DNA from: Paramecium tetraurelia
Lineage: Eukaryota
DNA: 64,000 nt
Assembly: GCA_000165425.1 (NCBI GenBank)
Contig: CT868033.1
Span: 1-64,000 of the forward strand
Reading direction: 5' to 3'
Shown here: positions 296 to 60,449 of the stretch, piece by piece
How the letters are laid out: each line of letters begins with the position of its first letter
How positions within the stretch are numbered: position 1 is the stretch's first letter
Program-made: the position numbers and the translations under genes
Notes under the pieces: model-generated
Seen by the model: only the letters and a program-made list of their open reading frames with translations
The model's database searches: none
Told to the model about the DNA's origin: nothing

Positions 296-2088
296 AAAGC
301 TGGGAAGGGGAATTTATCTCTAATATGGGTCTCGAAATATATTCGGTATAGATTATCAGTATATTGCCCATGTGCGTTTCTCTTATGAATTTGCTTGTGA
401 AGGTGACATTTGAGATAAAGAATTTGGAATTGTATTATAATAGAAAAATTAAGTAGTAGTATCGACAAATGGCGGTGACATCCGCGACCCAATTTCGAAA
501 GGATATAGTCTGGGTGTCCACCCATACTCTCGGAAACCGAATCTAATTGCTAATTAACTGTTTATTTCAATAAATGTGACAATTTCAAGTATAAGAATCT
601 TAAAATTTCTAATTATTACATGTCTTAACACTATTTTATCAGGCATACTATGATGGAGTATTAAGAGAATAAACTGTATAAAAACCATAAGTATATTTAT
701 ATTATTGAAGATATTTTCAAAAGCAATTCTTCAAGAATTTTTAATCATATTTAATTTTAATCTTAAAGAAGTAGTTCACTAGTTTAAGATCTTAGGTTTT
801 ATTATTCCCTTTTTCTATTTTGAATAACCTTTGTATCTAAAGTTAAAAAATAATAATATAGAGAATTTATTAAACAAGTTCCTATTTATAATGAAGGATA
901 GAAACTAAAATTAAATGTCGCCAAAATTGATGTATGCAATTTGAAAACTTTATATCACACTTGTTTTGCTTATATTTATGTTGATCACAATCAATTCGTA
1001 AATTTAGACCTAAATACCTTCAGTCAGGGTTTGAGAATCTATCTAAACAAAATTTGCATCCTTATTTTTCCTTATATTGCAGTTCGATGAAATCTATTTA
1101 TTATAAAAATCAAAATCCATATCATTTCCATTTCTCATTACTATAATATTCTCAATTCTGATTAGTCTTCAAAATTGTATATAAATAACAAATTAAAAGT
1201 GAATAATCCCCTATCTTACTTTTACTTGATCGAACCTTTGAGGGCATATTTAAGGGAAATACTTATTTCCTGAAAGTTTATTTAATTCTCAATAATCAAC
1301 AGTTTCATAAATTATATTATTAAATTATATGAAATATTTATTAATTTGATTAAAATCAAATTCACAAAACCGAAACCATGAATAGCTTTGCTTTGTTTTC
1401 AAAATTTAAAAACTTTTATTGGTAATTAAGCCAAAAAAGTTAAGCGAAAATTTAGGAAAACTAGGTTTGCAAAAATGATCTGCATTAACTATATTTAATA
1501 TGTAAAATTCGAACTTGTATATAATCATCAATAGATTAATGATTTGGAAATAAAGTGTAAATTTATAATCGAAGTATCTAATACAATAAGAGAGTTAAGG
1601 AAAAATTCCTTTTTGATTATTAATTAATAATTAAAATAAAACTTTAGAAATAACTGCAAATAGTGATTTATCTTTTTTCTCTTTCCTCAAATAAAATTAA
1701 GCCTCTTTATAACCTGGTTTATTACATACTTCAAACTAATAATTTTTATAAACATCTTTAAGATAATGAAAATTGTTCATATTTTAAAAAGGAGAAAAAA
1801 AAGTTTTCTGGTACCTAAATAAGTATACATCAAAGTTGAAATTCAATTTTAGAATTGCGCTCACCAATTAGGAGAAAAAAGAAAAAATTATGATCAGAGG
1901 GATCTTTATATAAATACATCAATAAATTCTTTGTTTTTCTACTTTATCAAATATTGTTATGTATCATCAATTAAAAATTTGACATCATAACTATTTACTA
2001 TTTAATTAGTAATTAATAAATTTGAATGTTGAGTATAAATAGACAAATATAATAGGAAAGAAATTAATATTTTTTTTATTTATTAATC

Positions 2089-5000
2089 ATGGATTAATAA
2101 GCCAAGAGGATTAATACTTATCTTTTTATGAGTAATGCTGCTTCAGTTTATACATTGCGAAATTATATGTTAAAAAAATTTAAGTAACTGCTCAACAATC
2201 TTAGTCATGGTAAAATTTTGAAAAATGAGGCAAGTAATTTAGATTTGGAGCCTTGTATTAAATTAAGAGGTGGTGGGTGTTGTGGAACAAAAAAAATTCA
2301 TTCTGATATAACATATGGCAATTAAAATTTTGAAGAAAATTTTGCATCCAAATTATAAACTTATACTAATATCATTGTTGAAAAATCGTTAAACTTTCAG
2401 GATAAGATGAATCAAGAAGAAATCCTGGCTGCATTCTAGTGGTTTCACAATCACAAAGAGTAATTTAACATTATTTGTAAGGATGATGCTTTAAACTCGT
2501 AATTTTATGAACTTATAGAAAGGATTGTAGAATAATTGATGAAATAACTGATAATTTTTTTAAAACTCTCTGGGTTCCTATTCTATTTGCTACTCTAAAT
2601 TTGTAATGTTTTATTCAGAATAATATTTTCATATTAATCAAAGAATGAAGAAAGATATATGTAAGCGGAATTACATAAGAGATTTTTAGAATATATTTAA
2701 GAAATCGAATCTTAAATCTAAGTAGAATCGATTAATATTTGGTTTAATGGTGTAGATTTTGAGCTCAAGATGATTAAGACATGTATTGCTCATTGTAGGA
2801 CAAACTCTGAAAAAGGTAAGGAATTAGCCATATCTATTATGTCTGGATTGATCTCATCATTATCTTAATTAAAACCCAGTGATGAATTGATTGACTCTCT
2901 TATAGAAGGAGGTAAGTTTTTACTTTTAAATTTCTATAATAAACAAATCCAAAATCCTTTACAAATTTACGAGATATATTACTTTTTTGAAATTCTGAAA
3001 TGGTCAATAGTAAATCAATTAAAATAGGGCTATTCCGTTTAGAATATCATTAGGCAAATTCAAGATGGATACCAAAAGTATATAAAGCTTTCTAAGGATT
3101 GGATGATACATTATTGTTGGGTTAACTTAATATCTGATCTCATGTGCTATAGACCGATTGTTTAAAAGGATTAATTATCATAACTGATGTAAATTGGAAC
3201 TGCTAATCAAGAAAATTGGAATTAATTATTAAAGTAAAATTAAATAATTTTACTTCCTTATAATAAATTTGCTGGTAAACTAAAAATATTTGGAAACTAA
3301 AATTTTAAAGTTAAAAAATTTGCACCTTTAAAATTATTTTAAGAGTACTTGATTTAGAATTCAAGTGAGATTTAATTATTGCAAGATTATATCAACTTTA
3401 ATTTCAATTGCTAGGCAGATCAATAATTAAATGAAGAGGATCTATTTATCTAATAATTAACGAGTCAATCGAATTTAGAATTAATAAAGGATTTAAACAA
3501 TTATTTAGGATCTCAGAAAGACCAATTAATAAATAATTTCGAATCTGTAAAGTAATAAGTGCTTTAATATAACGCTTAACTCAAAAATAACAAGGTTATA
3601 GAAATCAAAATAATAAAACAGGACATCCATTTTTTAATGAAGTCATTCAAACAAACCAGCAATTTAATTTTATGCTTACTCTAAGAGATAAATTTATTGG
3701 TAAATAAGGAACTCCAAATCAATTCAATTTTCTAAACATTCTTAGAAAGTCTTAATACGATTAATGCCGAATAATTGAATAAAATAAAACAATAAACATT
3801 AACATTAATTTAAGAGATTGAAAATAAACATATAGCAGAGTTTATAGGAAATTTAGATTAGGTAACTGCATTTTGGATACATTTGTCTGAATATACGACA
3901 ATTTAGCACGAAGAATTAATTGAAGGGAACCTAGAATAGGATCAATCGCTTGAAATTTAACTTAATGAAACTATTTAAGTCTTTGCTACCTATTGTCTAA
4001 ACATAGATAAATTTCTGTTATAAGTATCAACTGTGAAGAGAAACTTCTTGAATATTCTAAAATAGCAAAACTACAAAGATTTTTTAAAAGCCCCAATTTC
4101 TCAAAGACATATAGCTGAGGAGATAATCAGGATTTTGTATTCAAAGCTGATAGTGAAATTGGTTAATAAAGTTTAAGGATATTTCTAAAACATGGAAAAG
4201 GTGAAATCAAAAATTGAGGAAGTATAAGATATTCGAAAAGTTCTCAAAATCATTTATACCAGTTTAAATATTCATAAGGGAATAAAAATGATGCTTTGTG
4301 TCCATCAAAAAAAACTGAATACAATATTCCCATAATTTTAAGGGATTTTTTCAAGTAAAGGAGTTCAAGAAGCTGATGGAGAATAATAAAATTAAACAGA
4401 TATCAATGAATAAATTAGAGCATTAATTCTTGACAAGAAAGAGAAGTTATAAATTTTATTTAATAAATATTAAAACACAGAATTCACAAAGGAGCAATAA
4501 AATGATTTTAATAATCTATCATATCAAATTTATAGGGAAATAAACGATATAAAAAAATAGAATTGGAAGGAGCAAATATAAGAACCACTTATATTATTGT
4601 TCTAGGAGGTTAGAATTAAATTAGAAATATTTGGGTTGGTTTAGAAGGAGAGAAATATTATATAATAAGAAATTTTAAAATTGCTGGATAGCTATCTTTA
4701 AGAAATAAATTAAGAAGAAAAGACAGAGGAATTATAATCGTGTTCAAGGGATCCTTAATTACCTTCTTCTAGATAAGAATTACTAAAATTAAATTTAGGA
4801 GATTTGATTGAGTGTGAAAAGTTCATCAAAACATTAGAAGGCTTAATTATGAAATCTCAAAAGCTAAAGAGGATATTCAAATCAAATCTAATTGAAGCTG
4901 CTACTTACAATTAATCAACAAATGTATAGTTATTGAATAAATTAAAAAGTGTATATACATAAAGTTTATATCAAATAATAAGTGATATATCTCAATAAAC

Positions 5001-8000
5001 TCTATAGTTTTGTCAGTAGATAAATAGGAATGAATAAATGATTTTTAGTGAGAATTTTATTGCAAAACTCCAAAAATAACCTTAAATTTAGCAAGTTCAT
5101 GTAAGGATTTAAATATTAAATTTTAATACTCTTTGCATTGAAGATTAAGCTCCATAAAATTAGGATAGAAAAGATGATATAATCTCAACTATGTTTAAGG
5201 AGTTAAAAAAGAGCACCAAGACAAATTAAGAAGTAAGTATTTTTGATATGTTTTAAAATTCTTCATATAAAGCTAGGGAAATCCTTGTATTTAATTTGAT
5301 AAAGATGTAATCCGTAGTTCAAGAAGAAATAATATAAGAGTTTTGCGAAAATTTATTAAAATAAATTTGGATAATTGAAAAACATCCTAGTGTTAGAAGC
5401 TTACTGAAAAATGAGGAAATGATTGTGATGTAGAAGAAACTATTTTCAAAAGATTTACAAAATTTCTCAAATAAGTTAAAAACAGAAATGCAAAATAGAT
5501 TCAAATAAATTGAACAACTTGAAACTCAAATTCTTCTTAGCGATAATTAAGAAGAAATAAAGTTGTAGCTTCAACAAGAATATGAGAATTTTGAAATATA
5601 TTTAGATAATATTACGGATATGTCACAAAGATTAGATATTAGTTTAATGTTTTTAAGAGAAATTAGTAAGGATTTGAAAAACATAAAATCATCAATAGAT
5701 AAGGTATTAACTAGCATAAAAAGTGTGGAGGATGATATAAGAAGATTGAGAGGGAAGAACTTTATGGAATTACTGAGCATGCGAAAATAAAAGGTTTTAA
5801 AATAAAAATAAGAGAATGAACTTGATTAAATTCACATATAGGTTACAACACAAGATTACGATCCTATTTCTGGAAATAAAAAAACGAACAGTAAAGGGGA
5901 GTTCATCACATTCTTAATAAAGAATTAATATGATAATTTTGATGGGGAAGTGAATGAATTTTTATGGAGTGACTAAGAAAAGCAAAAAGATGTTATGTTA
6001 ATAAAAGGGAAAGCAGGTTCTGGTAAGAGTAGAGCTGCACGTAATATCGAAGAATTTATATGGATTTGCGATTCAATAAAACCAAATTGGATCCCTATTT
6101 ATTTATCTCTTCCATCCTTAAAAGACCCACATCATAATTTGATAGATTAGGCTCTTGAATCTGAAATTTACAACTTTGATAATATACAAATAAGAGAGTT
6201 CAAGGATGCTGTCATCAATGGAAACTTAAAGATTGTAGTGATTCTTGAAAGTTATGACGAAATGAAAATTGATTGCATTGGAACTAATCTTTATCATACA
6301 AATAGATTGGTTTAAGATCTTAATCTTTAGGCATCAGGACAAACAGTTAAAATGATTATAACGACAAGAGAAGAAATTTTGAATTAAATAGGATATTAAA
6401 CATGGTTTTATGGTCAAAGCATAGAAACACTTAAAGAAATTGAGATATTGCCTTTTAGTTAGGAACAGAGTTCACAATATATAAAAATATATGCTGAAAT
6501 AAGTGTTAAGAGAACTATTAAAAGATTTTATGAGTTTCTCAAATAATTGAAAGGTTAAGTAATTTCACTAGATGAGTTTAAGTAAATATGGAGTTAAATA
6601 GAGAATACAATTAATTCAATTATAATGTAGAAATAAAATTCTGAAGTGTTGTTTTAGACATAGGATGTGGATAAATTGATATTAAAGATTTAAGCAGTAG
6701 AGTTTTTTAATTTTATAAAATCAAATTAGATGGTATCATTAAAAAAGGAGTTATTGTAACTTTGGGGAGAGTAGAAATTCTCTTAAGTAATTAATAACGT
6801 CAACATCAATCATCTACTGACAACTCCATTTATGATGGAAATAATTGTTTATGTGTTACCTAAAATGTCATAATTTTTCTCGCAATCTAACTTAATAAGA
6901 GATTTACTAAAGAAAAATTTTATGGTTTTGAAAAGAGAGGCTAAGAAATCAGAGGTAGTGATTGAAGAATATTAAACAAGGTAAAATAAGAATTCAGAAG
7001 ATTTGAATCAATTAAATGTAAAGAAAGAGAAAAAAAATTTAGAATCAGAAATACTGGAATAATTTAATTTAATTATGGAAGACTTGGACAGTTAAAACTT
7101 TTTCGAGTAGTTTTCTATAGCCAACTCTCTAGAATATATCAATAATAATACTATCTTTTCAAGCAGATTTTTTAAAGTGAGGTATGATGCAAATTTTATT
7201 GTTTCAGCCTTTAGGTTAAACTAATTTACTGCTTTCGATTTTTATGAAATATTTGTTAACTTTTATCATAATTAACAATTACAAAAATTGAAGGACTTGG
7301 GAAAAAGTATAAAACTAGAAAGTGTTCTATTGGACTTATAAGATTTTTCAATATTTTTAGCTATAGATATGTCTCAGAGATAAATTACCCAAGTGAATTA
7401 TAAATCAAAAGGGAAACTATACATTAAGTAAGCTGAGGAAGAAAGGAAAGTTGAGGTCTCTTGGGAAGACTCATATTTCAGTGATAATTAAGATGATTTT
7501 GAGTACAAGACTCTATTACGCAAGTGTATGTTGATTAATTCAAAGGGCAGTATATATTCATTTAATCATAAATCCATTTAAGAGTTTTTTGTTGCCAAAT
7601 ACATCTTAAACTTGATTGAGAGACTCTTCAACAATGAATCACAAAGTGTGGATCAAACTGTGTTATAAAGCAGTAGTTTTAATAAGGATTAATTCAACCT
7701 ATCTTTGGATCATTACTCTGGAACTTTGGAAATATTAAAACCTAAATTGAAATAGATCGGAGAGATTAAACAGAAATTAATTCAGATAATCTAATTGTCA
7801 AAGATTGAATCTAAGAAAAAATTTTTAAGGTCAGCTTCAAATTCACTCTACATTATAAGTTCATTGAGGGAGCATTTTGATGGCATCGATTTTAGTAACA
7901 TCTAGATAGAGGATACTAAATTGAATGGCATAAGTTTCTATTAGTGTAATTTAAACAATACCTGCTTTAATAACGTTTCAATTGATTCATGTAATTTTAA

Positions 8001-11000
8001 TTGTGCAAAAATATAGAATGCTGTTTGGGAAAAACTGATTTGCAAAGAGAAACCCTCATTATCAGGTCACAACTCGAAGATAACTTAGGTTGTGTTTAGT
8101 GATGATGGAACCACCTTATTATCAGGTAGTTAGGATGGAACTCTTAATATCTGGTAGGTTTATGCTGACGAAGAGCCAAAGAGAGCAGACCTTCCAAATA
8201 ATGATAAATTAATTACAATATCGAAGGGTAAAAATTTGCTTGCCTGTCTCTCAGAGAATAATGTATATTTCTATAATCCACATAATTTGACGTAATTGAG
8301 ATTTGAAGCTTTGGTTAATGATAATTACGGTGATGTTATTTTGTCTCCAAACGATGAATGGTTAGCCGCATAGGTGAAATAAGGACAGGTACACTTATGG
8401 AAAATTGAAAATCTCGAAAAACCAATATAAAATTAAAGATACATTTCTAAGGAAAATGATAAGGGATAAATTAATTGCATTGCAATTTCTTCTAATTATT
8501 AACTCTTAGCAACATGTGGTAAGCAAATAACTCTATGGAATTGTAATAAAATATCAGACATTCAGGAAATTGCAGAGCTTCCAGCATAATCCAAGAATAT
8601 TTTCGGAGTTGCTTTTTCAAAAGATAATGAAATCTTAGTAACTGGGGGAGAAAATAAATAGCTTAAATTTTGGAACATTAAAGATTTAACTAATGTTTAG
8701 CTGCTTTATTCATTTGATTAATAAGAGATCATAATGCAAGTATCTTATTCATATGATGGAAAAATGCTAGCTGCAAGAACCTAATCATCAATTAAATTGT
8801 ATGAGGTTGACAAGCTGCTAGAATAATAGGACTTTTTTAAATTACTTCCTCAATGTCATTTTAAGATAATTGAGATATCTTCTGATTGCTAGATATTAAC
8901 TTCTGCTGAATATTAAACATCTTATTAAAATAACAGCAAAGCTAAAATATATGTTTGGGATATTAAAAACTTTCATTAAATTTAAATGATTCATACATTA
9001 GAGGAACACACTTAAAATATTTTATGTTTAAAAATTACAAATGATAACAAAGTTTTAGGTTCAAGTAGCGTAGATCAGACTATTTGTTTATGGGATTTAA
9101 CCAAATACAGCTTAATTATAAAATTAGAAGCACACACTAAAAAGGTCTCTAATATTGCTTTTTCATTTGATGGCAGATAAATGGTATCTAACGGTGATGA
9201 TAAAACAATCATTTTTTGGGATATCACCAAAATAGATTAGCCTCAAATTTAAACGAAAATATAATAATCAACGGATACAAAAATCATTGCTTTTTGTCCA
9301 TTCAAATCAATTATGGTGTCATTAGCAGGTCCAACTTCAAAAGGGATCCAATTTTGGAATACAGTTGAATTTACACAAATTCCTTTCGAACCAATCTTAG
9401 ATTATTTCTTAGATGTAAGTTTTCGGAAAGATGGTAATGCTATGGTTACATTGAGTAAGAATATTGGAATAAGGATTTGGAAAATAAATGAACAATCCTT
9501 CTAAATTGAGAAGAAAATTCCTCTAATAAATCTTTAATATTTACAAAGAGGGTTTTATTTAGATGATGAAAACTTTATAATACAGAATAATATTGACGTG
9601 ATTCAATTGTAAATTCAAAATGAAGAAATCAAATACACTTCTAAATTACTTTTCTCTCGGAATGCCTATGGAATGTCAGTAGCATCAAATTCTAAGTTTG
9701 TTGTAATTGGAAGCATAAAAGGTCTTGAGATTGTGGTTAGGGAAAATCAGAATAGTCCAAATTAAATTTCTTCAGAAAGCAACATTTAATACAGAGGCTT
9801 TTAATTTTCTCTTGATTCCTCTCTTATTTCTGCAGTATTTGAGAAAGGATTTGTTATTTAAAATATCGAAACCAAGTAAAGAGTAAAGAATTTTGAAGAA
9901 AAGAATAATTGCTTATCTGTTGGTTTTGTTAGCAATGAAAGAGTGATTGTTGGAACAGATACACTTGGAGGATAACTAATTTTATACGACATCAAAGATT
10001 GGTAATAAATAACAAAGTTGTCGGTCATCTAATTACCTAGATCCCCTTATAAAATCACTTTTTTAGAATAGAGACAATAAATTTGTGTATATAGTTATTA
10101 CCATATCATTTTACTCAATTTATAAAAATTAGACTTAATCTAATTGATTTAGATTAATAAAGGTAAAAAATCAGGAGAAGCTATTTTCAATTCGGATTAG
10201 TCATTTTTTGGTGTGGGTTTAGATAATCGTATTTATTTTCAATCTTTATCAGATATACTTATTTTGGATAAAATTTTTACATTAACCCAACCGAATTATT
10301 TGTATAAAAACTTTTCATAGAATAGTGAGTTTTTTTCGGCTATCTCAAAAGATTCAATATATTATTAATATGAATTAAATAAAAACTAGATTGCCAAATA
10401 AACTAATCTGAATTTAGCAAATTTGGAATTTGCTACTTTAAATCCCTAAGAATCGCAATTGGTTGCAATTCAGAATGCGCCGAATTAAAAATGGCGATAA
10501 AAATTATCGATGATTGACCTTGAAACGTAAAAAACAATATCATGCTTTGAAGAGATCGATGAAGAAAAATTTGTATGCTTAAAAGCGATCTTTTCTGAAG
10601 ATGGCTTAAATTTTGTATCATGCTATTTAGACTTAACAATTAAATTGTGGGATGCTAAATCTTGCAAATTGTTATCCATGTTTAAAAGTGATACTGCTAG
10701 CATTGATTTTCTTAGAATATCTTCAAAAGGGATATTAGCTTAGACAAGCAAAGAAGTCATAAAGTTGTGGAACTTGATAGCATTAAAACAGTAATAATTT
10801 GAAATGGATGGTCACACTGATTCAGTTAATTAATTGTGTATCTCCTCAGATGGTTTCTAATTGGTTACAGGATCTAATGTTGAAATCATAAGGTGGGATT
10901 TGATAGAACTAAGAAAAATTGATGTATTATTAACAGGTAAAAGACTTCCATCGTCATTTTGTTTTTCTACTAACTGTTAATATTTTGCTGCTCAAGATGA

Positions 11001-12546
11001 TAAACAATTAATCCACATATGGAAATTAAATACAAAATTCATGATTGAAAATCATTATCAATAATTTTGTATTATTTAAGACAAAGTTGCTTTTAGTTTA
11101 GATCAAACACAACTTATATGGAAGCATAGTAATTCATAAATATTCATCTTGAATTTAGAGCAGGTATTTAGATCAAAATAACTAATATCATAACCTAGAT
11201 TTAGTCCTGAATCAAGGTCAATTACGATTAATTCAAATATTCTTGTAAAAACAAATCCATTTGAATTAATTTTAACAAGCAATAACTCTGAATTAAAGAA
11301 TGAAGATATGGTGGGAATATAAGTTAGTTAAACAACAACAATTGCCATATGTCATGTTAATTAGAGATTAGCTCTTGAAGATCAAAATTAATCAATCATC
11401 ATATGGTCACTAGAAAGAAAATAGACAGAATCTATTTTGCAGCATTCCTCTTTGAAAAATAATAAAATTTTATCAATGGCCTTTTCTGGGAATGGTTAGA
11501 TTTTGTACTCTTGCCATACGAATGAAGTAATCAAATATTGGAATGTAACTGATAAATTTGCTTTGATTAAATCAGAAGAACTTAAAACTGTAAATAATGT
11601 TGATAGAAAAATATTACTTTTGTACATATTCCCACTGAAAGAAGAGGAATTCATAGCTGTATGGTATGAAGAAAGTTAAGTTTGGGTGGATGCTTAGGTA
11701 AATCAGATTGTGGTTTAAACCAAAGAAGTTGTAGTATTGGATGAAGCTATCAACTATCCTTTATCATCATCAAACTTCATAGCTGGGTATAATGAAGCCA
11801 AGAATTTAGTCGCAGTCTAATATAAGGCTAATCTAAAGATATATGATGTATCATAGTAAAAAGCAAAAGTTATTGTAGTTTTGGAAGGTAATTATCTTGA
11901 AAAATAGCCTCGTTCTTCAATACTCCAATTTTCAGAAGATGGGAATCACTTACTAGCATTAGGAATTAATCATACCCTAAGGTTTTGGGATATTTCTGAT
12001 TAAAATAAGATTGTGTAAAAAATTAATTAGTCAAAATTAGTTGAAACACTTGCCTTTGCTTTTATAAACTCATCAACAATCAGGATTTTTAGTAAATCTG
12101 GGGAAATAATTGATGAAAACATTTCTGAATATACATAAACAGGAGTAATCGAAGAGGGTACTTAATTTGATTTTGATAAAGCAAACATTTAATTAGGAGT
12201 ATATTTTTTTTTTGGAAAGTTTGATCAAAGAACTTTATATATTATGGATGCTTAAACTAATGAAATAAAATATACTTTGAATTAGTTTAGTTCTCAAATT
12301 AAATAGTTATAATTTGCATCATCTGGAGAAAAATTCATACTTGGTATGGAAGATGGGTCAATTTTGTTATATATGATTGATTCTAAAACATTAAAAAATT
12401 ATGAAAACCCAATTTGCTATTATACGTTTGCAAAAAGTCCTCTCTTGTAGGCCAGTTGCTGTAACATTTAATAATCAAGATTTCAAACTATTGAAAATGA
12501 AAATTTTGAAAAGCTATTATTGACTGAAAAGGGAGCTATCAAATGA
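2089..12546 (+). CDS. Giant NACHT/STAND NTPase - pentapeptide repeat - WD40 repeat protein (NLR-like), ~3,485 aa, apparently intronless
   Basis: Code-6 frame +1 from ATG 2089 (alternatives 2128, 2167) to TGA 12544-12546; all motifs checked are in one frame. LRGGGCCG at 2263-2286; Walker A GKAGSGKS 6007-6030; Walker B ILESYDEM 6241-6264; sensor IITTR ~6355; LLTTPFMMEI ~6815; winged-helix FNHKSIQEFFVAKY 7561-7602; pentapeptide block ~7830-8043; many WD40 repeats ~8060-12400. Confidence 0.9.
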
Positions 12547-13719
12547 ATATGTTATTTAAGTAATATATATTATATTAATTGAATAATTTGCATTTATAAT
12601 TACTATTTATCATTATTGTTAGTCAAAATCTTATTTTTTCCTATAATTCAGCTAGAAAATGCTAATAATGAAAATTTAGTACATAGGATGTTACCTGAAT
12701 GTATTTAGATTATAAATTAATCATAAATGTATCTTTTAAAAAGGATGTTACTTCCAGCTCCGAAATGGAAGGTATTCTAAATGTTTGAGACTAAGCTCAA
12801 TATTTATTATAATATAGAAACTAAACATTGATTCTTTGATTTCGAAAGTCAATTTACAGGTTCTAAACTCTCCTTGGAGTCGGAGAGCTAATAATCTTTT
12901 CCGTTTTTTTTCGCTCTTCTCCCGATAAGATAAAATCTTAACTATTCCTATTATTTTTTCTTCTATTGTGGATTCCTGTGGTGTTTACTTTTCCGCAACT
13001 TATATAATTTTTCTTCCCTCTGATGCTTCAATGTAAAGGGATCAATCTTGTTATATTAATTGAATTTCTCTTCTTTCCAGCAATTCTTATAAATACTTAT
13101 ATAAGAAGTAGTAAGTTGGCGATTTACTGGTTGATGACGAAGGGAACTTTTCCTAATTTTGTATAAACATCCTACAAGATAACATCTCCATTAGGGTCTT
13201 TATATCCATTTTGATAAATTCTGATTTTGTAAACTGATTAATTTCAAATTATCCTAAAATCTTATAAAAACTTTTTCGAAAAACACTCTTGCCAATGTAG
13301 CAAATATGTTCTGAATAGAAAATTTATTAAAATTATCCTGGAAATCTAATCATTTTTTGTAGTTCTTCGGAACAAATAATCATCACTCTAATAATATTTC
13401 TTTAACACTACCCCTTCCAAAGCATAATTTAAAAACAAATTATTTATTTGAAGTTAAATAAAAATGAACCAAACTTCTGTGTATTAATTCAATTTCTAAT
13501 TCTAAAGAAACTAGTAAATTATAAGATAGTATCCCTTAATAATTTCATTATGATGATTTGATTTTTCAAATGTTCTTCTTTAATCTTTGATTGTCATCTA
13601 AATTAGTTTAAAATTAGAAGATTGAAATCTCTTTATATATAATGTTTAAATTCAATTATAATAAGGATTTATGACATATTCCAAAGGAACCATAATAGGT
13701 AATCTATCTTTAATCTACA

Positions 13720-15300
13720 TATGTTATATTCTACCTTAATTGCAATCATCTTCAATTTGTTTTGAAATATTTAAATTAAGGATTCATCTCAGATCAGTGC
13801 TAATTTTGCAAATTGTAATTTGTAATTTGATTGGATCTAAATTAGAAGCTGAAGATGTGAGTGGAATGAATTTGAATAGAGCATAATTATTTAATTGTAA
13901 GTGGAATAACATAAAAATACCTGAGCTAAATAAGTTAGAAGGCCAATACAGCGGTGCTAGTTCAATCTGTATCTCTCCTGATAGTAATACGCTCGTAACT
14001 GGTTATTCAAATGGGTCTATTTGTTTATGGGATCTTAAGACAGTATAATAAAAAGCAAAATTAGACGCCCATAATAGTTGTGTAAGTTCATTCTGTTTCT
14101 CTCCTTATGGAACTATATTGGCATCAAGTAATTATTATGAGACTATTCGATTATGGTGTACAAAAACAAGAAAAGTTATATTAAAATTATAAGGACGGAG
14201 TCTATTTGGTATTTCCTTATGCTTTTCTCCAAATGGCACTACATTAGGGTGGGGTACAAGTAGTGTCTGTTCAGTGTGCTACTCTCACCTGATAGTACTA
14301 CATTAGCATCTGGCAGTGCAGATCAGTCTATCCGTATATGTGATGTAAAGATAAGAGAATAAACAGTAAAATAAGATGGTCATAGTGATAGTGCGAATTC
14401 AATATGCTTCTCATCTGATGCTACTATATTAGCAACATGTAGCTACGATGCCTCTATCCGTATATTGGATGTTAACACAGGGTAGTAAAAAGCAAAATTA
14501 AATGGTCATATTAATAGTATTAATTCAGTTTGTTTCTCTCCAAATGTTAATATTTTGCAACTGGTATTACAGATAACTCTATCCATTTATATTAGTGATC
14601 AAACATGATAATTTAAAACAATATTAAATAGTTATAATGATACTGTCCGATCAGTATGCCTTTCTCCTGATGGTATTACAATAGCTCCTGGTAACTTTGA
14701 TAATTCTATTCGCTTATGGGATGTTATGACAGGAAAATAAAAAGCACAATTCAATGGTCATGGTTGGACTGTCACTTCATTATGCTATTCTCCTAATGAT
14801 ACTACATTAGCATCCGGCGGTGGAGATAAGACTATCTATATATCGGATTTATAGACAGGGCAATAGAAAGCTAAAATAAATGGTCATAAAAATTGTGTCA
14901 TTTAAGTATGTTTCTCTCCTAGTGCTACTAAATTAGCTATGATGCCTCTATCCGTTTATGGAAAGTTAATACAGGTCAATAAAAAGCAGAATTAAATTCT
15001 CACATTCATTGCGTCTATTCAGTATGCTTACTTTCTGATGGTATCTGTGGTAAATGAAGACAATATTTATAGTTTGGATGTTAAAGAGATTTCTGTATTG
15101 GGAAAATAATATCAAGATACTCCTATCTAAGTTAAAAATCACTTTTAAAAAATCTTTTATTATTTAACAAAACGTATATATTTTTTTCATTGACTATTTA
15201 GCTCCCTCTAATATCTTCTTAGGACAATTCAATTATTATGGAGAAGAGTTAAGATCTTTCTTCAAATCTAAAGGAAGTTTAATTTTGAATAACTAAATAG
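13720..15300 (+). pseudogene. Decayed pentapeptide + WD40 repeat gene (SIRLWDVKTGQQKAKLDGH-type, 42-aa repeats)
   Basis: Reads SANFANCNL..GMNLNRAQLFNCKW, then repeats of SI(R/C)LWD..TGQQKAKL.GH..V.SVCFSP.G.TLASG. Exact 126-nt register at 14342/14468/14720/14846. Disruptions: 7-nt duplication 13823-13829, indels at ~14285, ~14555 and ~14935, in-frame TGA 14606-14608. Family-type tail FFKSKGSLIL at ~15260-15290. Confidence 0.85.
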
Positions 15301-22916: not shown

Positions 22917-23065
22917 NNNNNNNNNNNNNNNNNNNNNNNNNNNNNNNNNNNNNNNNNNNNNNNNNNNNNNNNNNNNNNNNNNNNNNNNNNNNNNNNNNNN
23001 NNNNNNNNNNNNNNNNNNNNNNNNNNNNNNNNNNNNNNNNNNNNNNNNNNNNNNNNNNNNNNNNN
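22917..23065. other. Assembly gap (149 N)
   Basis: Run of N. Confidence 1.
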
Positions 23066-28635: not shown

Positions 28636-30063
28636 ATGGATATTTTGTGTCCGAACTAAGGGCATAAAAATTAGATTGAATTCGTTTGCATGAGGGATTC
28701 TTGCCAAGAATGCCGCTTTTCTTGTTTTGAATGTTTACAAGCTGGAAATCATAAGAGCCATATTGAAGATGTTCAAAAATTCTCTGCATTTTTGAATGTA
28801 ATAAAGTAGTAATCATCCGATTACGATGATCTTATGAATAAGCTTTAAAATTGGATTAATCATATGAACAATTAATGTGGGGAACTGAAAAAAGGGTTAG
28901 AAATGAGATACAAAGAGATAACAGAATTAGCTAAGAATTTTAGTATAAATCACTTTAATGAACTTTCTTCTTGTTTCTTCTCATTTCAAAGGAGTAAATA
29001 GAATTTGTATTAGATGATTTCAGAGAGTGTAGGAAGCCTTTCTGAAACAATAACTAATAGTAGAAAAATTTTATGCTTAGAACCATAAATTCAATAATAA
29101 ATATTTAATAAAGAGTTGAAGCCATTTAAATATGAATTAATCAATAAAATAAAAGATGAATACATTTTTGCTTTTGCGTTTAATAAAGAAGCAACTCTCT
29201 TAGTGGCTGGTTACGAATCAAGCAAAATAAGAGTATTTGATTTTGAGCAAGGATAATTACGACAATTATAGGAATTGAACAATCATAGTAAAAGAGTTAG
29301 ATGCGTATACTTTTTGTAAAAATCGCTTTCATTCATCTCTGGTAGCTATGATCGCTCGATTATTGTATGGGAGGCCTCAGAAAATGGATAGTTCTATTGT
29401 AAATAAAAGCTTGAAGGTCATACTGATGATATTAATTGTTTGATTATTAATAATAATGAGGATTTGATTATATCAGGTAGTGATGACAAAACAATTAGAC
29501 TATGGAGTAAAAAAGATCAATGGCATTGTTTATAGACATTAACATATCATAATGGGAGTGTATTTTGTATCAGTATGAATGAAACTTAAAATTAATTCAT
29601 TTCTTGTGCTGCAGACAACCTAATTGTTGTAAGTCAAAAAGATGTGGATAGTTCTTTCTGGAATATTCTATAGACTATTAAAGTAGAATGGGGTTTAAGA
29701 TTATGCTTTATTAGCAATACTTAATTTACATATCAACCTTATAATAAAAAGCAGATGATAATTTATGAATAAAATAAATTCAGCCAATAATTTGTTAAGC
29801 AAAAGGAAATTGCTGTAAAGTCTGGAAATGATTGCTTTTGGTATTTTCCTTAAAAATATATTAAATCAAAATCACTGTTACTCAACAAAAATGGAAGTGG
29901 TTTAAATATGATTAAAATAAAAGAGAATGGGGAATTTATTTAAGAATAAATTATCGATTTTGATGATAATTACATTCATGGAGCAATTTCAGATGATGGA
30001 GAGTATTTAATCACCTGGGATTGTAAAACAGAAGAAATTCAAGTTAGGCAATACAGTGAATGA
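28636..30063 (+). CDS. B-box-like zinc finger + coiled coil + WD40 protein (475 aa)
   Basis: N-terminal CPNQGH..VC..SC..CRFSCFECL..NH..H; WD repeats (LEGHTDDINCLI..LIISGSDDKTIRLW); single open frame to TGA 30061-30063. Confidence 0.85.
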
Positions 30064-30631: not shown

Positions 30632-32788
30632 ATGCAATATTTAAATTTGTTCATACAACCAATACCAAACACAGTAGTATTTCCATACTCTAGTTTGTAA
30701 CTCTATGATGTGGATTGCTATATTCAATTATTACATTCTCAATACATCGGATTGGTTTCATAAATCAATGACAACCAGCCCAATGTTCAAACTATATCAT
30801 AATATAGTTAATATGGCACACTTGTGCATGTAACAACAAAGCAAGATGAGTCATCCAATTTTTGCAATGCCTTTGCATTCGCCAGATTTAGAATAAATTC
30901 GTTTTGCCAGGTTTCACCATTCTTAATAGCTAATGTTGAAATACTGAATGATGAGATCAAAACCGACGATACTGAAATCTTGAGTACATTTAAAGAGGCG
31001 GTTAAAGTAATTTTGCACTAATATTTTTAGATCTATATGGAAAACTTCTCCCTTTTACCCAATGCTCTGTTGAAGCAAAAGATAGACGAAGAAAACAACA
31101 TCGTCAAATTATAATATCAAGTGGCTAACAGAATTTAAATTCCATTCAACCAAAAACTTAGATTGCTATAAATGAACGATAACAGAGAAAGAATATCAAC
31201 TATGATTTAATATTTGAATCACAAAATGACCTAATATTCAACAAGCAACGAATTAGAGCAAATATTTAAGCAGGAACTTATGTCTGAAATGCAAAATAAT
31301 GGAGAAAACTTAATTAATTAAACTGAATAAATTATTCCATAAATGCAAGAATAAGAACTGGATTACTAATAACAATATGTTTAGTCATTGCCATGGCAAA
31401 TCCTACATCCAGAAGCTGTAAGTATATCTGAATGCAAACAAATTTTGGACCAGAGACATTATGGATTGGACTTGGCTAAACAGCGTATTCTATAATATTT
31501 AGCAATTAAATTTTTAACAAAATCTACTGGATCTATACTTTGTTTACATGGTCATCCTGGAGTGGGAAAGACATCATTAGCTTAGAGCATAGCTGAATCC
31601 TTGGGGAGACCTTTTCAAAAGATTTCATTAGGCGGAGTATCAGATGAAGCATAAATAAGAGGTCATCGAAAGACTTATGTGGGAGCATAGGCAGGAATGA
31701 TTATGGAAGCAATAAAGAAAGCCAAGTGTGTAAATCCAGTCATCTTACTTGATGAGATCGACAAGATTAATTAATACACTGTTGGTTCAGCCTTGTTAGA
31801 GGTCTTGGATCCAGAATAGAATAAATGTTTTATGGATAATTATGTGAATGAGGAATTCAATTTGAGTTAAGTTCTGTTCATTTCAACAGCCAATTACATA
31901 GAATCTATATAACCAGCATTGAGGGACAGATTGGAGATGATTGAGATCCCATCCTACACAATTGATGAGAAGGAGAAGATTGCAATTTAACATTTGATTC
32001 CTAAATAATTGGAGCTTAATGGGATTGATGGGAAAGTAGAATTTCAGTAAGGATGTTGTTAGATATTTAATAACAAACTATACCAATGAGAGTGGAGTGA
32101 GATAGTTAGAGAGATAAATAAATTCTATTTTAAGAAAGATTGCACTTCAACAAGTAAGAGGGAACAGGAAGGGATCTTACAATATTAATAAGGGATTTGT
32201 CAATTAATGTTTGGGGGAATCCACAATTATCTACAAGAACATCAGATTATAGAGTGTTGGAATGTGCAAAGGGTTGAATGATGGAATGAACATATTGGAA
32301 ATCATCAAAACAAAGGGATAAGGCAATCTATTTTAGTAATCTAAGGATCAATATATTGTTGAATAAGGAATTACTGCATAATCTTATTTAAGGAATTGTT
32401 TCAAACACATTTAATTTTAAAATTGGGACGTTACTGTTGCAAACTAGAATTGTTTGGGTGTTTGTGTTGCTGTGGCAATGGTGTCATTATTTATGAATAA
32501 GAAAGTGAAATCAAGTGTTGCATTTGCAGGAGAGTTAAGTCTCAAAGGATCTATTTTTAGACAGTACAATCTGAGAGATAGCATCATTTAGGCAGCAGAA
32601 TCTGGAGTCGAGAGGTAATAGCATTATTTAAAATGAGTAGCATCATTATTCCATCTTAGAATGTGGGGGACATTTAGAACTTAGAACCTTCTATTAAAAA
32701 GAGAATTACATTAGTTGATCACATTGAGGAGGTATTCCAATTGGCGTTTGAAGATGGATTTACTTACTAACACTACCCTAACTTATGA
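30632..32788 (+). CDS. Lon AAA+ protease homologue with degenerate protease domain (+1 frameshift at ~32043)
   Basis: LDQRHYGLDLAKQRI; Walker A [30 protein letters not shown]; Walker B LLDEIDK; LLEVLDPEQN; PALRDRLEMI; YTNESGVRQLER; AFAGELSLKG. One intron ~32615-32640; TGA 32786-32788. Confidence 0.85.
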
Positions 32789-32839: not shown

Positions 32840-34370
32840 TCACACAATAATATCTCCTTAATAGACTGCTGATTCTAGATTTAATCTCATTTTTTAGCAT
32901 TTTGATGATGCATTTTGAATTGTGTCCTTAAGTTTCATAAACTATTTTTTTAAATCGTGCATGGGTGTAGTATGTATTTCTACATTTAGTTTTTCAATTC
33001 GATTAAACATTTTCATCAATGAGATAGCTAACGATTCACAGGCATGTTCAAAGAGCTACTGATAATGATCTAACAATTTGGATGACTATTGGTTCTTATG
33101 AGAGATATAGTAGGACAAACAATAAGACCTGCACAGTAATGATATTATGTATACCATTTTAATATAACTCTAGATTAGATTAGTTCTGCCATGACTTCTT
33201 CCAAGAATTGAGTGTCATGCATATCGAAGCCAAAATACATAAATATTTAATGGATGTAGTAATCTCTAATTTTTTTCAATGACTCCTGGGCTTTTTATCC
33301 TGCAGCTGCTTAAATTAGATATCCTTTCGAATAGAAATTACATCTTTCTATTAAATCTTTCTCCAATTCTGTATTGTCTTTGGGTGGTACATACTAGTTG
33401 CACTTATAATGATCTTTGTGATCTGGTTTCCAAGGTTTAGAACAAACATAGCAAAAAGCATTTGCACATCCTCCTGGAGGTTTACATAACATGTAATTGC
33501 ACCCAAAAGATCTTTCAACAAATTATTTGCAAAAAGGACATTGTTTTGTATTAAGCCTAATCCAATCTTAATTGGCTTAATCGTTTTTGAGTACTACAAG
33601 CCATTTTTTAACCAAATCACAAGGACATGGAGGATGCAGTTCCTCTTTACAATAGAAACAGAACTTTGTTTAACAGAGGCAAGTCACTTCTTTAGTTGAT
33701 GTGAATTTAGGTTTTATAATCTTGTTGCAATTAACAGCAGGACAATATGCCAAATATCTTGAGCATTCTACAAATTTTCTACAGAGCAGATCTTCGAATT
33801 CCTTCTAATTTGAGAATTTTCTAATCATCGAAAAAGGCAGTTTGTAATTGCAACCATTAAATAAACACCTGACAAAGAGAAACTTATCTTTTTACACTCT
33901 TTGCATTATGGTCTGTTTTATGCAGGATTCACAAAACATATGTTTACACCCTAATAGAATCAATTGCTCTTAGCAAAAACAAACTGTACAACATCCCTGA
34001 AGTCCATTATAAATAACATTTTAGTGATCGTTTATAATTCCATTAGCTTTGAATTCAGTCAACAACTTTTCTGAAGCAGAGTAATATTTTTAAGTGATGT
34101 CGTCTTTATTCCAATTGTAGTGCATGAGCAACTTCATAATTAGGATCTAATACTTCGAAAGTGTTGTCTTCATCGAAATACAAGATCTCTGAGAGTTCTT
34201 GCACTTCTTTCATTATCACTAACATGACATCCTTCATCTCCAAGATCTCCACCATACTAGAGTTATTATACTAGGTTATACTCTAATTTCAAGTTTTCTT
34301 GCCAAGAGTTTATTTGGTTGAATTCTTCTGAATCATTTTAATAGTTATATTAATCCTCATCATCACTCAT
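32840..34370 (-). CDS. Ariadne-type RBR E3 ubiquitin ligase
   Basis: Acidic N-terminus; RING1 (CTVC..GCKHMFCESC); IBR (YCPAVNC..VTCLC..FCFYCKEELHPPCPC); RING2 (NTKQCPFC..GCNYMLC..C..FCYVC..W); Ariadne helical tail. Confidence 0.9.
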
Positions 34371-46234: not shown

Positions 46235-49200
46235 TCAGATCATTCTCATAATTTAAGCAATTTCTTTTGATAAGATTTGTAAGGAAGGCGTGACAACACT
46301 GATTATAGCTGCAAACATGGCAATAATAATGATGATAATCAGCATTTACCATGGGAATACAAATATCAAAGGTAATTATGTGAATAAAGTCTATTACAAT
46401 GCCATGGATTGTCCAATAATAAATCCGACCATCAATCCAATAAAACTGGAACTGAACACCAATGTGAATGCCTCCATAATATACACTGTAGTAATGGATA
46501 ATTTAGTATTTCCAATTGCTCTAAGCACTGAGATCTCCTTAACCTATTCTAACATATTGGCAGACATCGATGTCATAAGACTGAAGAATGACAATACCAT
46601 AACAACTCCAGTTAGGAAACTGAATATGATTTGAATTAGATTCTGACTTTGCTTAATGGATGTTTCATAATCTCTGTAATCCCATATCTTAGCAGAGATA
46701 CCTTAAGCATCAATGTACTTTTTGAATTGACCATAGACAGTGTCGATGTTACCAGAACCAGATACAGAAATGAGTAATCTTTTCATAGGGTAATTTTCAA
46801 CTGCATCTATCAAATTTCCACACAACCTCCTGTATGTTGGTAAGGAGACGACAACATTTTATTCTTGAACACTCGGCAGACTACTAAATTTAAGGGCAGG
46901 TGCTGAAGTGACAATTGAAGAAGCTCTCATTTAATGATATTGACTGTATGTATTATTGTACACAACCAGAAGGAAAGTGCTGTCAATGTCAATTTTGATA
47001 TTGAGTTGGTCAGCATAACTGGTACCAATCATAGCACTTTGACTTCCTCGACTCGTATACAATTATTCAACTGGATTCAATTTGCTATTAATTTGATTCT
47101 CGACTTTCAGAAATTGATTGTATCCCATATCAAATAGAGTATGTGAGACCCCCACGATCTTAGGTTTGAGTTGGTAGACCTAACCTAAATGGGTCATGTA
47201 TGTTGTGGAAAATCCAAGTTTCTACATGTAACTATCCAAGGGATCAGTGACCCATGCAAAACTAGTGATGTTGCCTCCCAATTCTAAGATTATTTTTTCG
47301 AATTCAAATGGTGAGAGATATCCATTGGAAGCAGTGATCTCAAGTTTGCAACCATGTTATTAAAGTGTCTAAGTAGCTTGGTTTTCAATCTGCACGCTCA
47401 TACCAACAAAGATGAAAATCACAAAAGCTATGGATAAGGCATACATCAGTGCTGTTCTTCTATTTTTGATCTAAAGAAATAATACATATGAGTACCCTAT
47501 GTGCAGCTAGATTCTTCAACACCATTGTTTTCTTGGCTGAACTAGCCCAGAACAAAAATAGATAAACCGTAAATCGTTCAGCAAGGTATTAGATATTGAA
47601 TGCAAAGATGACCAATCCCAAGAGCATGCCACATAAGATGAAGAAGAATATTGACAACAGTAATCCAATGTTGAATGACAATAAAGCCAAAGGCAAGAAG
47701 TAATAAACACATATTCCAAACAACGAAGCTATTACAGCGAACTGGATTCTACCCCAAGGCAACGATTTGCCTTCAAGATCTACTTCTATTTTCACTGCAG
47801 TTGATTTTGATCTGTTGATATCCAATGCAAAACTCAATTACTTACTTAATGCTTCTTTTATGGGAACATAAGAACTCAACAAAGGAATCAGCAATCCCAA
47901 TCCGAGTGCCATAAATACGGCATTTGTTGTTGGAGTAGCTTCTATCTCAACTCCAATCGAAGCTTTGAGTGCACTACTGGCATATAATAGAAATGGAATC
48001 GAAAGGATAATACCTGCTACTATAGCTGGCAACACATAACTCAATGCTTGAGTCAATACTATGAACACTACTCCCAACTTATTAAACCCTAATACTCTCA
48101 ACACTCCCAAGTCATAAGTCTTAGTCTCCACTGAGATCAACAACAAAGTATATAACAGTAAAACACTCAATAGAAACAATATCACGATGATCATATTTAA
48201 TATGATACCCAAAAACAGTTAACCAAATCGAGAATCATACAGTTGTTATAAGACAGGCAAATCCATATTACATGGATAAACTCCCAAATCTCGTCTTATG
48301 TTACTTGCATATTTGGTTATCTTCCCTTATATATTCTCGTAATTGCTATCCATGTATATATCAAATCTGTCAGGTATATTGATTCTGATTTCATCTACGA
48401 ATTCCTCAGGATTAGCAGTATACAAAGCCTTTAAAAATGGTTTGTCCCATGACCAATAAGCAAGATTGTTAAAGAAGTGTTTGTGTTCTACAATTATCAA
48501 TTTATCAGCATCTCCATCTGGAAATTTACCATAAGTGGAATCCAACAACGCTTTGACTTGATACAAATAAAATCTTTAAGTGGCTTTCTTCAGATCTCCG
48601 AATTCTTGATTTAAAAATGTCTCATTGTAATTGGTTAAATTGAATTGCCTACCAATCTATTCATAATAGTTCTCTATATAATAAGACCCATAAAAATCAT
48701 AGAACTCTCCATATATTAGCATGTAATCTCCTACATTCAATCGATAAGTTTCAGCTAGCTTCCTACTCAAAATCACCTCCGTCTCTTTTAATTCATCAAA
48801 TGGATATTCCCATCCTAATCCAATATCCTTCTCCTTCAATGTATCAATCGCCACAAATTTTGCCGTTGGATGAGGCTATACTCCTCCGCACCTCTAACCC
48901 AATTACTATCCATCTCTCAAATCATTAAAGTGGGCATCGCTTCCGAATTCCTACCTTTTGGATAACAATTATTATGCTTTATTCACAGACTATCTTTAAG
49001 TGATTATATTATACATTCTCACAATCTCCTGACTTTTACAAATAAGTGAAGTTGACTTGCTACGAAATTCTAGGACTTGCTTGACTTGCCCTGTCTGGTC
49101 CTAATACTTCTTTGACTCTGGTGAAGTTTAGGAAGTCAACTATGAGATATCCTTGTTGTCTGGCTGAGTTACTATAGATGGACATCAAATACTGAGGCGA

Positions 49201-51868: not shown

Positions 51869-52261
51869 TCAATTATAAAGACTTGGTTTTCTTCTCTTAA
51901 AGAGAGTACTTTCTTCAAGAGAAAACAAAATTGGAACTTTTCGTTATTGATTATACAATTTATCAAAGACAACTAAATATCGTTTTAAATTGTCCTATTT
52001 ATGTTGCTAAGCATGCACATGTCTCAATACTTGGTCTCTGTGCTATTAATCAATTGCTGCTTATTGTGGATTATTAAGAAGCTCATCAGTTGCTAATAAA
52101 TCGACTTCACTTTATTATGAATCATTTTCTGGTGATTTTTCTAAAATCTTGTTGTCGTCTGTCCTGATACTGATTGGAGGTAGAGATTATTAATTGCTGA
52201 TAGTAAGATCTTATTGTTAGTAAGTTAATGATTGCGTTTTTTTAGAATGGCAAACTCCCAT
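51869..52261 (-). CDS. Small putatively myristoylated/palmitoylated protein (~130 aa)
   Basis: MGVCHSKKTQ start; ends VPILFSLEESTLFKRRKPSLYN*. Confidence 0.6.
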
Positions 52262-53132
52262 TATGAAAGTAAGGAGACTTCTAATTAATTAAATTATTTT
52301 TGAATATATCAAAAGACTATCCATTTAACTTCTAAATCATACTAATAAAAAAAGATACGGCTTATAATTGCCACGTCTCCTTAATTTCATAACTCTCATA
52401 TAATAAATATGATAATTGCACAATTTGCTCAAAATATACTTGATTATTAAATCCAGAGCAAAAAATTTCCAAATTTTTATTAGTTATTCGAATTTTCTCT
52501 CATTTTAACTTTATTTAAGGAAAAAATAACAGAACTAACAACAAATGACTAAAAACTTTTAAAATGTGGAAAATAAGCGTCTTATCGATTTCTATAATTT
52601 GAATGCTGATGGATTTCAATATTCTCTAATGAAATACAGGGAATCAATGATATTGAGAAAATATTTGAATTTGCAACAATTTGGAAGAGTAGAGCCATAT
52701 TATGGATGAAATGAAAATCAAACGAAAATTATTTTATAAATAAGTAATCTCGAAATTATTACTCCTAATATTTTTGGAAAACTATGAAATATGTTGAATT
52801 TATAGCCAATACTATAGCTTTGAACTCAAAAAAAATTCCAAAAAGATAATGCATTAATTTAGTAGCAAATAGGAAGGTTACGATTAATTGGAAAACTCTC
52901 AATTGACTACTCTTTATATTAACCCTTAACAAAAAAAAAATAATCCTCCATTAAGTTCCAGTATATCTGACTATGAGATAATATGAAAAAGTGAATTTAA
53001 TTGTAATAAATTCAAGTATTAAAAAATGATATGTCAATCCGTAAATAAGATGTGTTTCTATTTGGCTGAAATGTTAATAATTTATATAATTACTATTGTA
53101 TTTAGAAATAGATTGATATATCAAAATAGATA

Positions 53133-59891: not shown

Positions 59892-60449
59892 TTTTTAAAT
59901 TTTATTGAAAAAATGTAAAAATTATTTAAACAATCAACAAACATATCTTATGAATGTGTTGAGAACTTTAACTTATTAGTCAAATCCCACTGTTCTTGTC
60001 TTATTGAGATCTAAAGCAAAATAAATATGTTAATTGCCATTTTTTAAAAGTAAAAGAAAAAATTGGTTAATTAAGATTTTCTATATTTAATTATTATATA
60101 TTAAGATACTGAGAAGTGAAAAGTCGATATCGACCACCTTAGAAATATTATGAAAAGAAATCATAAATATCTCTATGATTTCAACATCTTCAATTATAAT
60201 TGGGCAGAGTATTCCAATTTATAATTTAATTCGATAGATTTTTTAAATCTTTAAGAGATAAATCGAATTTACCAGTATCTTTATAAAGTAAGCCTTTTTT
60301 TATTTAAATATTTTATATGATATTTAATTATAATTCATCTAAAATTGGATAACTGAATAAATAATTCTTTAAAATATTTGCGTAATGTAATAATTTAATT
60401 TAATATTTATACTTGAAAATATAAAAACAACAAAATAATTTCAATTTAT

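Follow-up and report, generated by a model that had tools for sequence, protein, structure and literature searches.

An invariant LRGGG motif near the N-terminus of Paramecium NACHT-WD40 proteins as a candidate signal for leader removal and lipid anchoring

Caspase cleavage can expose a Gly residue for post-translational myristoylation (PMC9880554, PMC10297038, PMC4200515). A signal that may lead to a similar exposure in a ciliate is described here. The DNA analysed, referred to throughout as the window, is a stretch of 64,000 nucleotides from Paramecium tetraurelia (assembly GCA_000165425.1, contig CT868033.1, positions 1 to 64,000 of the forward strand). Close to its start lies a gene for a giant NLR-like protein, and near the N-terminus of this protein LRGG, the last four residues of ubiquitin, is followed directly by a third Gly and by Cys. 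LRGGG proved to be invariant wherever the gene models of the family cover it, and may mark the end of a leader whose removal would allow the protein to be lipidated.

In huntingtin and BFSP1, as in this proposal, the reports on caspase substrates describe an internal Gly that is exposed and acylated by N-myristoyltransferase (NMT), with the C-terminal fragment going to membranes and sometimes being palmitoylated as well. BID and PAK2 are further caspase-cleaved proteins that are myristoylated post-translationally. Such substrates are cut after Asp, in apoptosis, and are unrelated single proteins, whereas the Paramecium site is LRGG and marks an entire gene family, and the piece that would be removed is a short variable leader. 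Anchors of the SH4 type (Met-Gly-Cys) share with the family a Cys near the Gly, but their initiator Met before the Gly is absent from it.

Cleavage after LRGG is familiar from ubiquitin and ubiquitin-like (Ubl) precursors and from natural ubiquitin fusions, where it frees the N-terminus of the downstream polypeptide. LRGG is common to both, but the Paramecium leaders are without a beta-grasp fold, unconserved, 2 to about 60 amino acids (aa) long and predicted to be disordered. The bacterial double-glycine leaders recognised by C39 peptidase domains are also short and are removed to give the mature product; their last two residues are Gly-Gly, and position -4 is hydrophobic. They belong to a secretion system and have further conserved positions upstream; no counterpart of these hydrophobic and acidic positions was found in the eight positions before the L of LRGG, where no residue reaches 30%.

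Among viral proteases, adenain recognises (M/I/L)XGG-X and (M/I/L)XGX-G (PMC7998265). The papain-like protease of rubella virus, also a deubiquitinase, is reported to need no ubiquitin body to cut the substrates Z-RLRGG-AMC and LSRGG-AMC, and its active site has been modelled with RLRGGG and LSRGGG peptides (PMC9271420). The native sites of these enzymes lie in viral polyproteins and capsid precursors, unlike the leader of the Paramecium NLR-like protein. Plant coiled-coil NLRs (RPS5, SUMM2 and others) are described as tethered to the membrane by an N-terminal myristate and an S-acyl group (PMC11467418, PMC13043302), an acyl anchor that, as in our proposal, stands ahead of the N-terminal signalling domain of a STAND protein. 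The plant proteins differ in that they start with Met-Gly, are acylated during translation and combine NB-ARC with leucine-rich repeats, where the Paramecium proteins combine NACHT with WD40.

The motif in its gene and its family

The window is AT-rich (GC 0.21-0.37), and the NLR-like gene is subtelomeric, 1.7 kb off a macronuclear chromosome end. It was read in the ciliate code, in which TAA and TAG specify Gln. The features of this end of the window are as follows.

1-292: CCCCAA/CCCAAA telomere repeats at the window start
2026..12546, plus strand: giant NACHT-WD40 (NLR-like) open reading frame (ORF), uninterrupted in the ciliate code; 3,506 aa (P0001)
2089..2262, plus strand: leader, a propeptide candidate; the true start is the ATG at 2026, 2089, 2128 or 2167
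2263..2274, plus strand: L-R-G-G, identical to the last four ubiquitin residues; proposed P4-P1; invariant in 62/62
2275..2295, plus strand: G-C-C-G-T-K-K, proposed neo-N-terminus, with Gly (N-myristate), Cys-Cys (S-acylation), Thr at +5 and Lys at +6/+7
2296..2340, plus strand: variable linker between anchor motif and folded domain, predicted disordered (unconserved columns, low pLDDT)
about 2338/2341..3192, plus strand: conserved N-terminal domain, predicted all-alpha (helical solenoid), beginning NFASKL; no Pfam family
6007-6030, plus strand: NACHT Walker A/P-loop, GKAGSGKS, at aa 1,328 of P0001
8065..12543, plus strand: WD40 beta-propeller region (WD40/propeller families)

The stored gene model (P0002) starts at 2089 and encodes 3,485 aa, and each of the four in-frame ATGs is a candidate start. 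The description of the product as NLR-like, made in the original prediction from the letters alone, is borne out by the Walker A sequence, by PF05729 (NACHT) among the precomputed families of P0002 and by the propellers: WD40 and many other propeller families cover P0001 from about aa 1,940-1,990 to past 3,000 (PF00400, E 4.9e-55). PF05729 is also found in relatives P0032, P0034 and P0035 (E 1e-10 to 1e-12). A Pfam search of aa 1-1,225 returned no family. Judged by its domain content, the product is a giant NACHT-WD40 STAND ATPase of the NLR-like kind.

Codons 2263-2295 of the plus strand (TTA AGA GGT GGT GGG TGT TGT GGA ACA AAA AAA) read LRGGGCCGTKK, as the original prediction had it, and they lie within the frame of the ORF. 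Its placing of the motif about 60 aa from the start, with G62 and G63 on either side of the supposed cut, agrees with a count from the ATG at 2089, which gives L59-R60-G61-G62-G63. LRGG occurs only once across the six frames of the 64 kb. An RNA-seq contig (run X9) is ungapped over 2157-2586 and spans the motif, and a second contig of this run, which yielded three in all, is likewise contiguous over 2776-3030. Ten reads, whose first mates map to the minus strand, came from two oligo-dT RNA libraries (X22, 2 reads; X23, 8 reads) and lie at 2188-2370 and 3042-3224; run X21 gave 0 reads. The motif therefore lies within contiguous transcribed sequence, without an intron. Introns at about 2540-2640 and 2915-2990 had been considered and were rejected, as both stretches are conserved coding sequence in all paralogues and contiguous in the RNA contigs. 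Upstream of 2157 no RNA was seen, at a depth too low to place the 5' end of the transcript.

Relatives of the protein all come from named Paramecium; the closest is from P. pentaurelia, with 73% identity over the N-terminal region. They place the organism in the aurelia group, and the telomere-like repeats are accordingly no sign of Tetrahymena. The family was sampled from six named species, including the distant P. bursaria, and the counts below cover the retrieved family, not the whole proteome. With the N-terminal 450 aa as query, 24 proteins (1,928-6,136 aa) were retrieved, 22 of which contain LRGG exactly once, always at residue 9-59; neither RGG nor GGG occurs elsewhere in the 81,236 residues of these 22. 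One of the remaining two (P0022) begins at the equivalent of residue 222 of a relative. The other, a P. pentaurelia model (P0006), has QEVVDAA, within residues ~40-54, where its relatives have LRGGGCC. QEVVDAA corresponds to the LRGGGCC codons read one base later, suggesting that the model is out of frame here and not that the motif is lacking. The same model returns to the family frame ~15 residues on, so that its start may be mis-modelled, the assembly may contain an indel or the gene may be a pseudogene.

Using the surroundings of the motif together with the following domain as a query, phmmer found 44 hits among 1.84 billion representatives. Twenty matches reach the motif position, and LRGGG is present in 18 of them. 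In 11/20 of these site-reaching alignments the first aligned position is query position 14-16, that is, the L of LRGGG, so that homology begins at the motif. P. bursaria was represented by one distant hit, from which a further search recovered two more proteins, and LRGGG is present in all three. Querying with the NACHT region, independent of the N-terminus, returned 68 proteins, 43 of them new, with LRGGG in the first 165 aa of 34/43. When all proteins longer than 1,900 aa were pooled, LRGGG was found within the first 200 aa of 62/73. The starts of the other 11 align to position 70-1,312 of a motif-bearing relative; these models do not cover the site, and LRGGG is therefore present in 62/62 models that do. 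Beyond residue 200 of the 62 proteins (214,774 aa), LRGG is absent, RGG occurs once and GGG three times. The original prediction had staked itself on conservation in paralogues and orthologues, and it comes through this comparison strongly. On these alignments LRGGG is a signature of the whole family and not a peculiarity of one gene.

It might still be argued that the motif is an accident or an artefact, either untranslated, the true start lying downstream, or kept for the sake of the DNA and not of the protein. In favour of this, the start codon is not established, and the database models of several relatives do begin downstream of the site. However, family composition predicts only 1.3e-4 chance occurrences of LRGGG per protein of 3,400 aa, against the 62/62 observed; in this gene no further in-frame ATG follows the motif before the conserved domain begins; and the motif lies inside the RNA contig at 2157-2586. 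Moreover, the frame of P0006 implies a Gly codon and two Cys codons that are unlike those of the window, so synonymous change appears to be tolerated at the motif. A metagenome scan for DNA of relatives, aimed at synonymous variation at the motif, gave 54 pattern matches, none of which was confirmed. We consider an accident or artefact of either kind very improbable.

Leader, linker and the residues after LRGG

Counted from the nearest ATG (2167), the leader would be 36 aa long including LRGG. Across the family it has only 2-12 aa in many members, the shortest examples being MT-LRGG (P0068, from P. bursaria), MLIT-LRGG (P0109) and MSQSKLI-LRGG (P0103). Between orthologue pairs, whose domains are 90-95% identical, the leaders are 52-79% identical with 0-1 indels; between paralogues (70-78% domain identity) they cannot be aligned. 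This pattern suggests a leader that is translated yet under little constraint. That no ubiquitin fold lies upstream, as noted from the single sequence, thus holds for the family too: several leaders are only 2-7 aa long, and a beta-grasp fold needs ~70 aa, against leaders that are short, unalignable and, in their last 15 residues, disordered in the structure prediction. A mitochondrial presequence or a signal peptide was rejected by inspection alone, because leaders tend to be acidic instead of hydrophobic and may have no more than 2 aa.

An AlphaFold2 (AF2) model of an N-terminal fragment, built from 22 sequences, has a mean predicted local distance difference test (pLDDT) of 75.9 and a predicted template modelling score (pTM) of 0.67. 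At fragment residues 1-30, which take in the motif, the linker and the final 15 residues of the leader, pLDDT is 26-34, and it stays below 50 to residue 35. About 20 unconserved residues separate the anchor motif from the conserved domain. The model thus depicts the end of the leader, the motif and the linker as a disordered tail accessible to enzymes. Five invariant residues in such a tail, between stretches of free-running sequence, present the picture of a short recognition site for an enzyme.

The folded part that follows is predicted as helices at fragment residues 42-323, with pLDDT mostly 75-96. Foldseek against the PDB gave no match at E <= 0.001 for this domain. VIA-align returned only generic rows of the HEAT/ARM type, the best with Z 12.5 over 144 residues (root-mean-square deviation 2.8), a Z in the range called common for helical repeats, and in the ESM Atlas the best feature score (0.84) is below lead level. 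Within a 470-aa N-terminal fragment, C87, H298, W75, N130 and D62 are invariant. A self-cleaving cysteine protease domain, suspected from the invariant Cys and His, found no support, since the AF2 model is an all-helical solenoid with generic HEAT/ARM-like matches only.

Residues after LRGG were counted in 40 motif-bearing sequences from P0002-P0065, chosen for having the motif. Position +1 is G in 40/40, +2 is C in 35/40, +5 is S or T in 27/40 (and A in 4 more) and +6 is K in 20/40. The S/T peak stands at +5 of the third Gly; one position earlier the count is 16/40, and two positions before it neither S nor T is among the six commonest residues. In 22 sequences checked for it, a Cys was found within +2 to +4 in all. 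The PROSITE-type NMT pattern is G-{EDRKHPFYW}-x(2)-[STAGCN]-{P}; position +5 is preferably Ser/Thr and is followed by basic residues. This pattern fits the third Gly in 19/22, compared with 360 of 1,901 Gly sites (19%) in the same proteins, and combined with a nearby Cys it fits only 3% of Gly sites. The residues after LRGG thus fit a dual-acylation N-terminus, Gly-Cys-x-x-Ser/Thr-Lys, and the grammar that had been recognised in one protein (third Gly, adjoining Cys, Ser/Thr at +5, Lys at +6) is seen family-wide. Met never stands directly before the third Gly (0/62), LRGG preceding it in all 62. As no Met precedes the Gly, the free N-terminal Gly that NMT needs would require proteolysis.

The original prediction had also likened this arrangement to a normal MGVCHSKK start at 52261. 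That sequence is present, but on the minus strand and inside an ORF (51869..52324) in which it begins 21 codons past an upstream in-frame ATG; the ORF has no Pfam family. MGVCHSKK may be an ordinary co-translational dual-acylation start.

The glycines could serve in another register or for another purpose. A metacaspase-like or Arg-specific protease might cut after Arg, leaving GGGC, or the exposed Gly might act in turnover, as an N-terminal Gly can be a degron. The NMT pattern is indeed nearly as frequent one residue earlier (18/22). However, the invariance of two or three glycines is then unexplained, and the peaks of Ser/Thr and Lys are in register with the third Gly, which they favour as the acylated residue. 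We regard another register or purpose as quite improbable.

A stronger contender is that LRGGG is never cut. It would be a short linear motif, kept in the protein and bound by a partner, with only the Cys S-acylated; candidate binders are the protein's own WD40 propellers (autoinhibition via the Arg), a palmitoyl transferase and an arginine methyltransferase. A disordered tail is typical of linear motifs, the nearby Cys is conserved, no protease is known, and the leader, whose length is kept between close orthologues, is at least translated. On the other hand, a motif that is merely bound gives no reason for Ser/Thr at +5 and Lys at +6 from the third Gly, for identity with the ubiquitin tail or for upstream freedom down to 2 residues. 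Methylation sites of the RGG type are usually clustered, but RGG is found once per protein, and beyond residue 200 once in 62 proteins. We therefore hold an uncut motif to be a possible explanation, though a rather doubtful one.

Proposed leader removal and lipid anchoring

The account to which we give about an even chance of being right has the leader removed by a cut behind LRGG, which would expose Gly-Cys for N-myristoylation and S-acylation. The NLR-like protein would be made with a disposable N-terminal leader ending in the ubiquitin tail. A cytosolic cysteine protease needing only P4-P1, with a specificity like that of deubiquitinases, Ubl proteases, papain-like or adenain-like enzymes, would cut after the second Gly and so expose Gly-Cys-x-x-Ser/Thr-Lys. 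NMT would then acylate the new N-terminal Gly post-translationally, and a palmitoyl transferase the adjoining Cys, leaving a protein of ~3,400 aa to hang from the membrane by a flexible linker of ~20 residues. The invariant residues would each have a role, L, R, G and G as P4-P1 and the third G as acyl acceptor. Each step has a precedent in the systems named above: caspase substrates for the exposure of Gly to NMT, viral proteases for the cutting of LXGG or RGG-G peptides in the absence of the ubiquitin fold, and plant NLRs for an acylated N-terminus. Inferred here are the cut, both lipidations, the placing at a membrane and the nature and source of the protease, which is most likely a host enzyme acting in constitutive or regulated maturation. 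As a speculation, the leader might delay anchoring until the 10.5-kb message has been fully translated, or make anchoring conditional.

Several points weigh against this account. A Met-Gly start would suffice for a mere anchor, and no family member has one; the purpose of the leader is not explained by the anchoring model alone. Cellular deubiquitinases usually need the ubiquitin body, and an enzyme able to cut LRGG as a bare peptide is hypothetical in Paramecium. The NMT step presumes a putative Paramecium NMT. The Cys at +2 is absent in 5/40 sequences, and the NMT pattern, fitting the second Gly in 18/22, does not fix the register by itself. Two models that reach the site deviate from LRGGG, both of them short or broken: P0028 has IRGCG (993 aa, alignment soon lost) and P0049 has FAGGG (387 aa). 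Finally, with an RNA depth of 10 reads and 3 contigs the start codon of the gene is not fixed.

The puzzle of the leader would be solved if LRGG were a bait, the decoy for foreign proteases that the original prediction named as one of its two options. Copying the unchangeable C-terminus of ubiquitin, it would be cut by a foreign protease in infected cells only. The cutting enzyme may come from an intracellular bacterium, as an effector of the deubiquitinase type, or be encoded by a virus or mobile element, as a papain-like or adenain-like maturation protease; the exposed Gly-Cys, lipidated or acting as a degron, would relocate or activate the NLR-like protein. A tripwire of this kind would explain why a leader is kept in place of a Met-Gly start, and it would suit the NACHT-WD40 architecture and a family that is large, diversified and subtelomeric. 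LRGG-G also meets both of the published adenain motifs at one bond (PMC7998265) and resembles the reported rubella protease substrate (PMC9271420). Moreover, pathogen proteases are described as activating NLRP1 and CARD8 by cutting a disordered N-terminal region (PMC7857732, PMC10249858), a location for the protease-sensitive site that these sensors share with the NLR-like protein of our proposal.

However, the tripwires described so far lie in fast-evolving regions (PMC10249858). The region in Paramecium is disordered, but its site is invariant in 62/62, over paralogues and species genus-wide, which suggests rather a housekeeping maturation signal. NLRP1 and CARD8 are also described as depending on a FIIND and on proteasomal degradation, whereas in the Paramecium protein neither an autoproteolytic release module of the FIIND (ZU5-UPA) type nor a death-effector domain was recognised (Pfam, aa 1-1,225, and the best 25 of 32 families for the whole protein). 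A bait for foreign proteases accordingly appears unlikely to us. We would put no more trust in the broader idea that all Paramecium NACHT-WD40 proteins share a protease-gated lipid switch, in which the protein is soluble and silent with its leader on, and moves to the membrane and assembles once it is cut. Such a switch, built on a copy of the ubiquitin tail, would be opened by a protease with specificity for that tail when it is active in the cytoplasm, whether an endosymbiont supplies it as a deubiquitinase-type effector or a virus or Polinton-like element encodes an enzyme of the adenain-like or papain-like kind; the new Gly-Cys terminus would be myristoylated and palmitoylated before the move.

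Neighbouring features and implications

Further features of the window are listed below.

13671-14729, plus strand: WD40-repeat ORF with pentapeptide-like sequence before the repeats
22917-23065: run of N, 149 bases; assembly gap or masked stretch
28636-30063, plus strand: WD40-repeat ORF
30632-32089, plus strand: N-terminal half of a Lon-type AAA protease
33016-34173, minus strand: IBR (RBR-type E3) protein
46235-49016, minus strand: two FtsX-like permease ORFs in tandem
57186-59891, minus strand: protein kinase
60441-62843, minus strand: USP-type ubiquitin carboxyl-terminal hydrolase ORF, 800 aa (PF00443, E 3.9e-34), 48 kb from the motif

The ORF at 13671-14729 could be a piece of a further member of the family that has neither NACHT nor the N-terminal part. 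The proximity of the USP-type gene is no evidence that its product processes the leader.

In open-access full texts, the literature covered here, we found no description of an LRGG-Gly-Cys signal or of LRGG-linked myristoylation in Paramecium or other ciliate NACHT-WD40 proteins, and no link to ciliates among the matches listed for LRGGG. Taken singly, the elements are familiar; what appears to be new is their joint use as the hallmark of an entire protist NLR-like family.

If the leader is removed as proposed, there would be a processing protease with specificity for the ubiquitin tail that does not need the ubiquitin fold, and post-translational myristoylation, so far known mainly from caspase substrates, would serve as a constitutive route. 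Paramecium would then have a membrane-anchored NLR-like family, in parallel to the acylated NLRs of plants. If the cut is conditional, an immune tripwire of a new kind would exist outside animals, and if foreign proteases make the cut, a protist immune sensor would be exploiting a host sequence that a pathogen enzyme cannot avoid recognising. The invariant five-residue signal at the front of these proteins offers a handle, testable by mutation, on the workings of the very large NACHT-WD40 families of ciliates.

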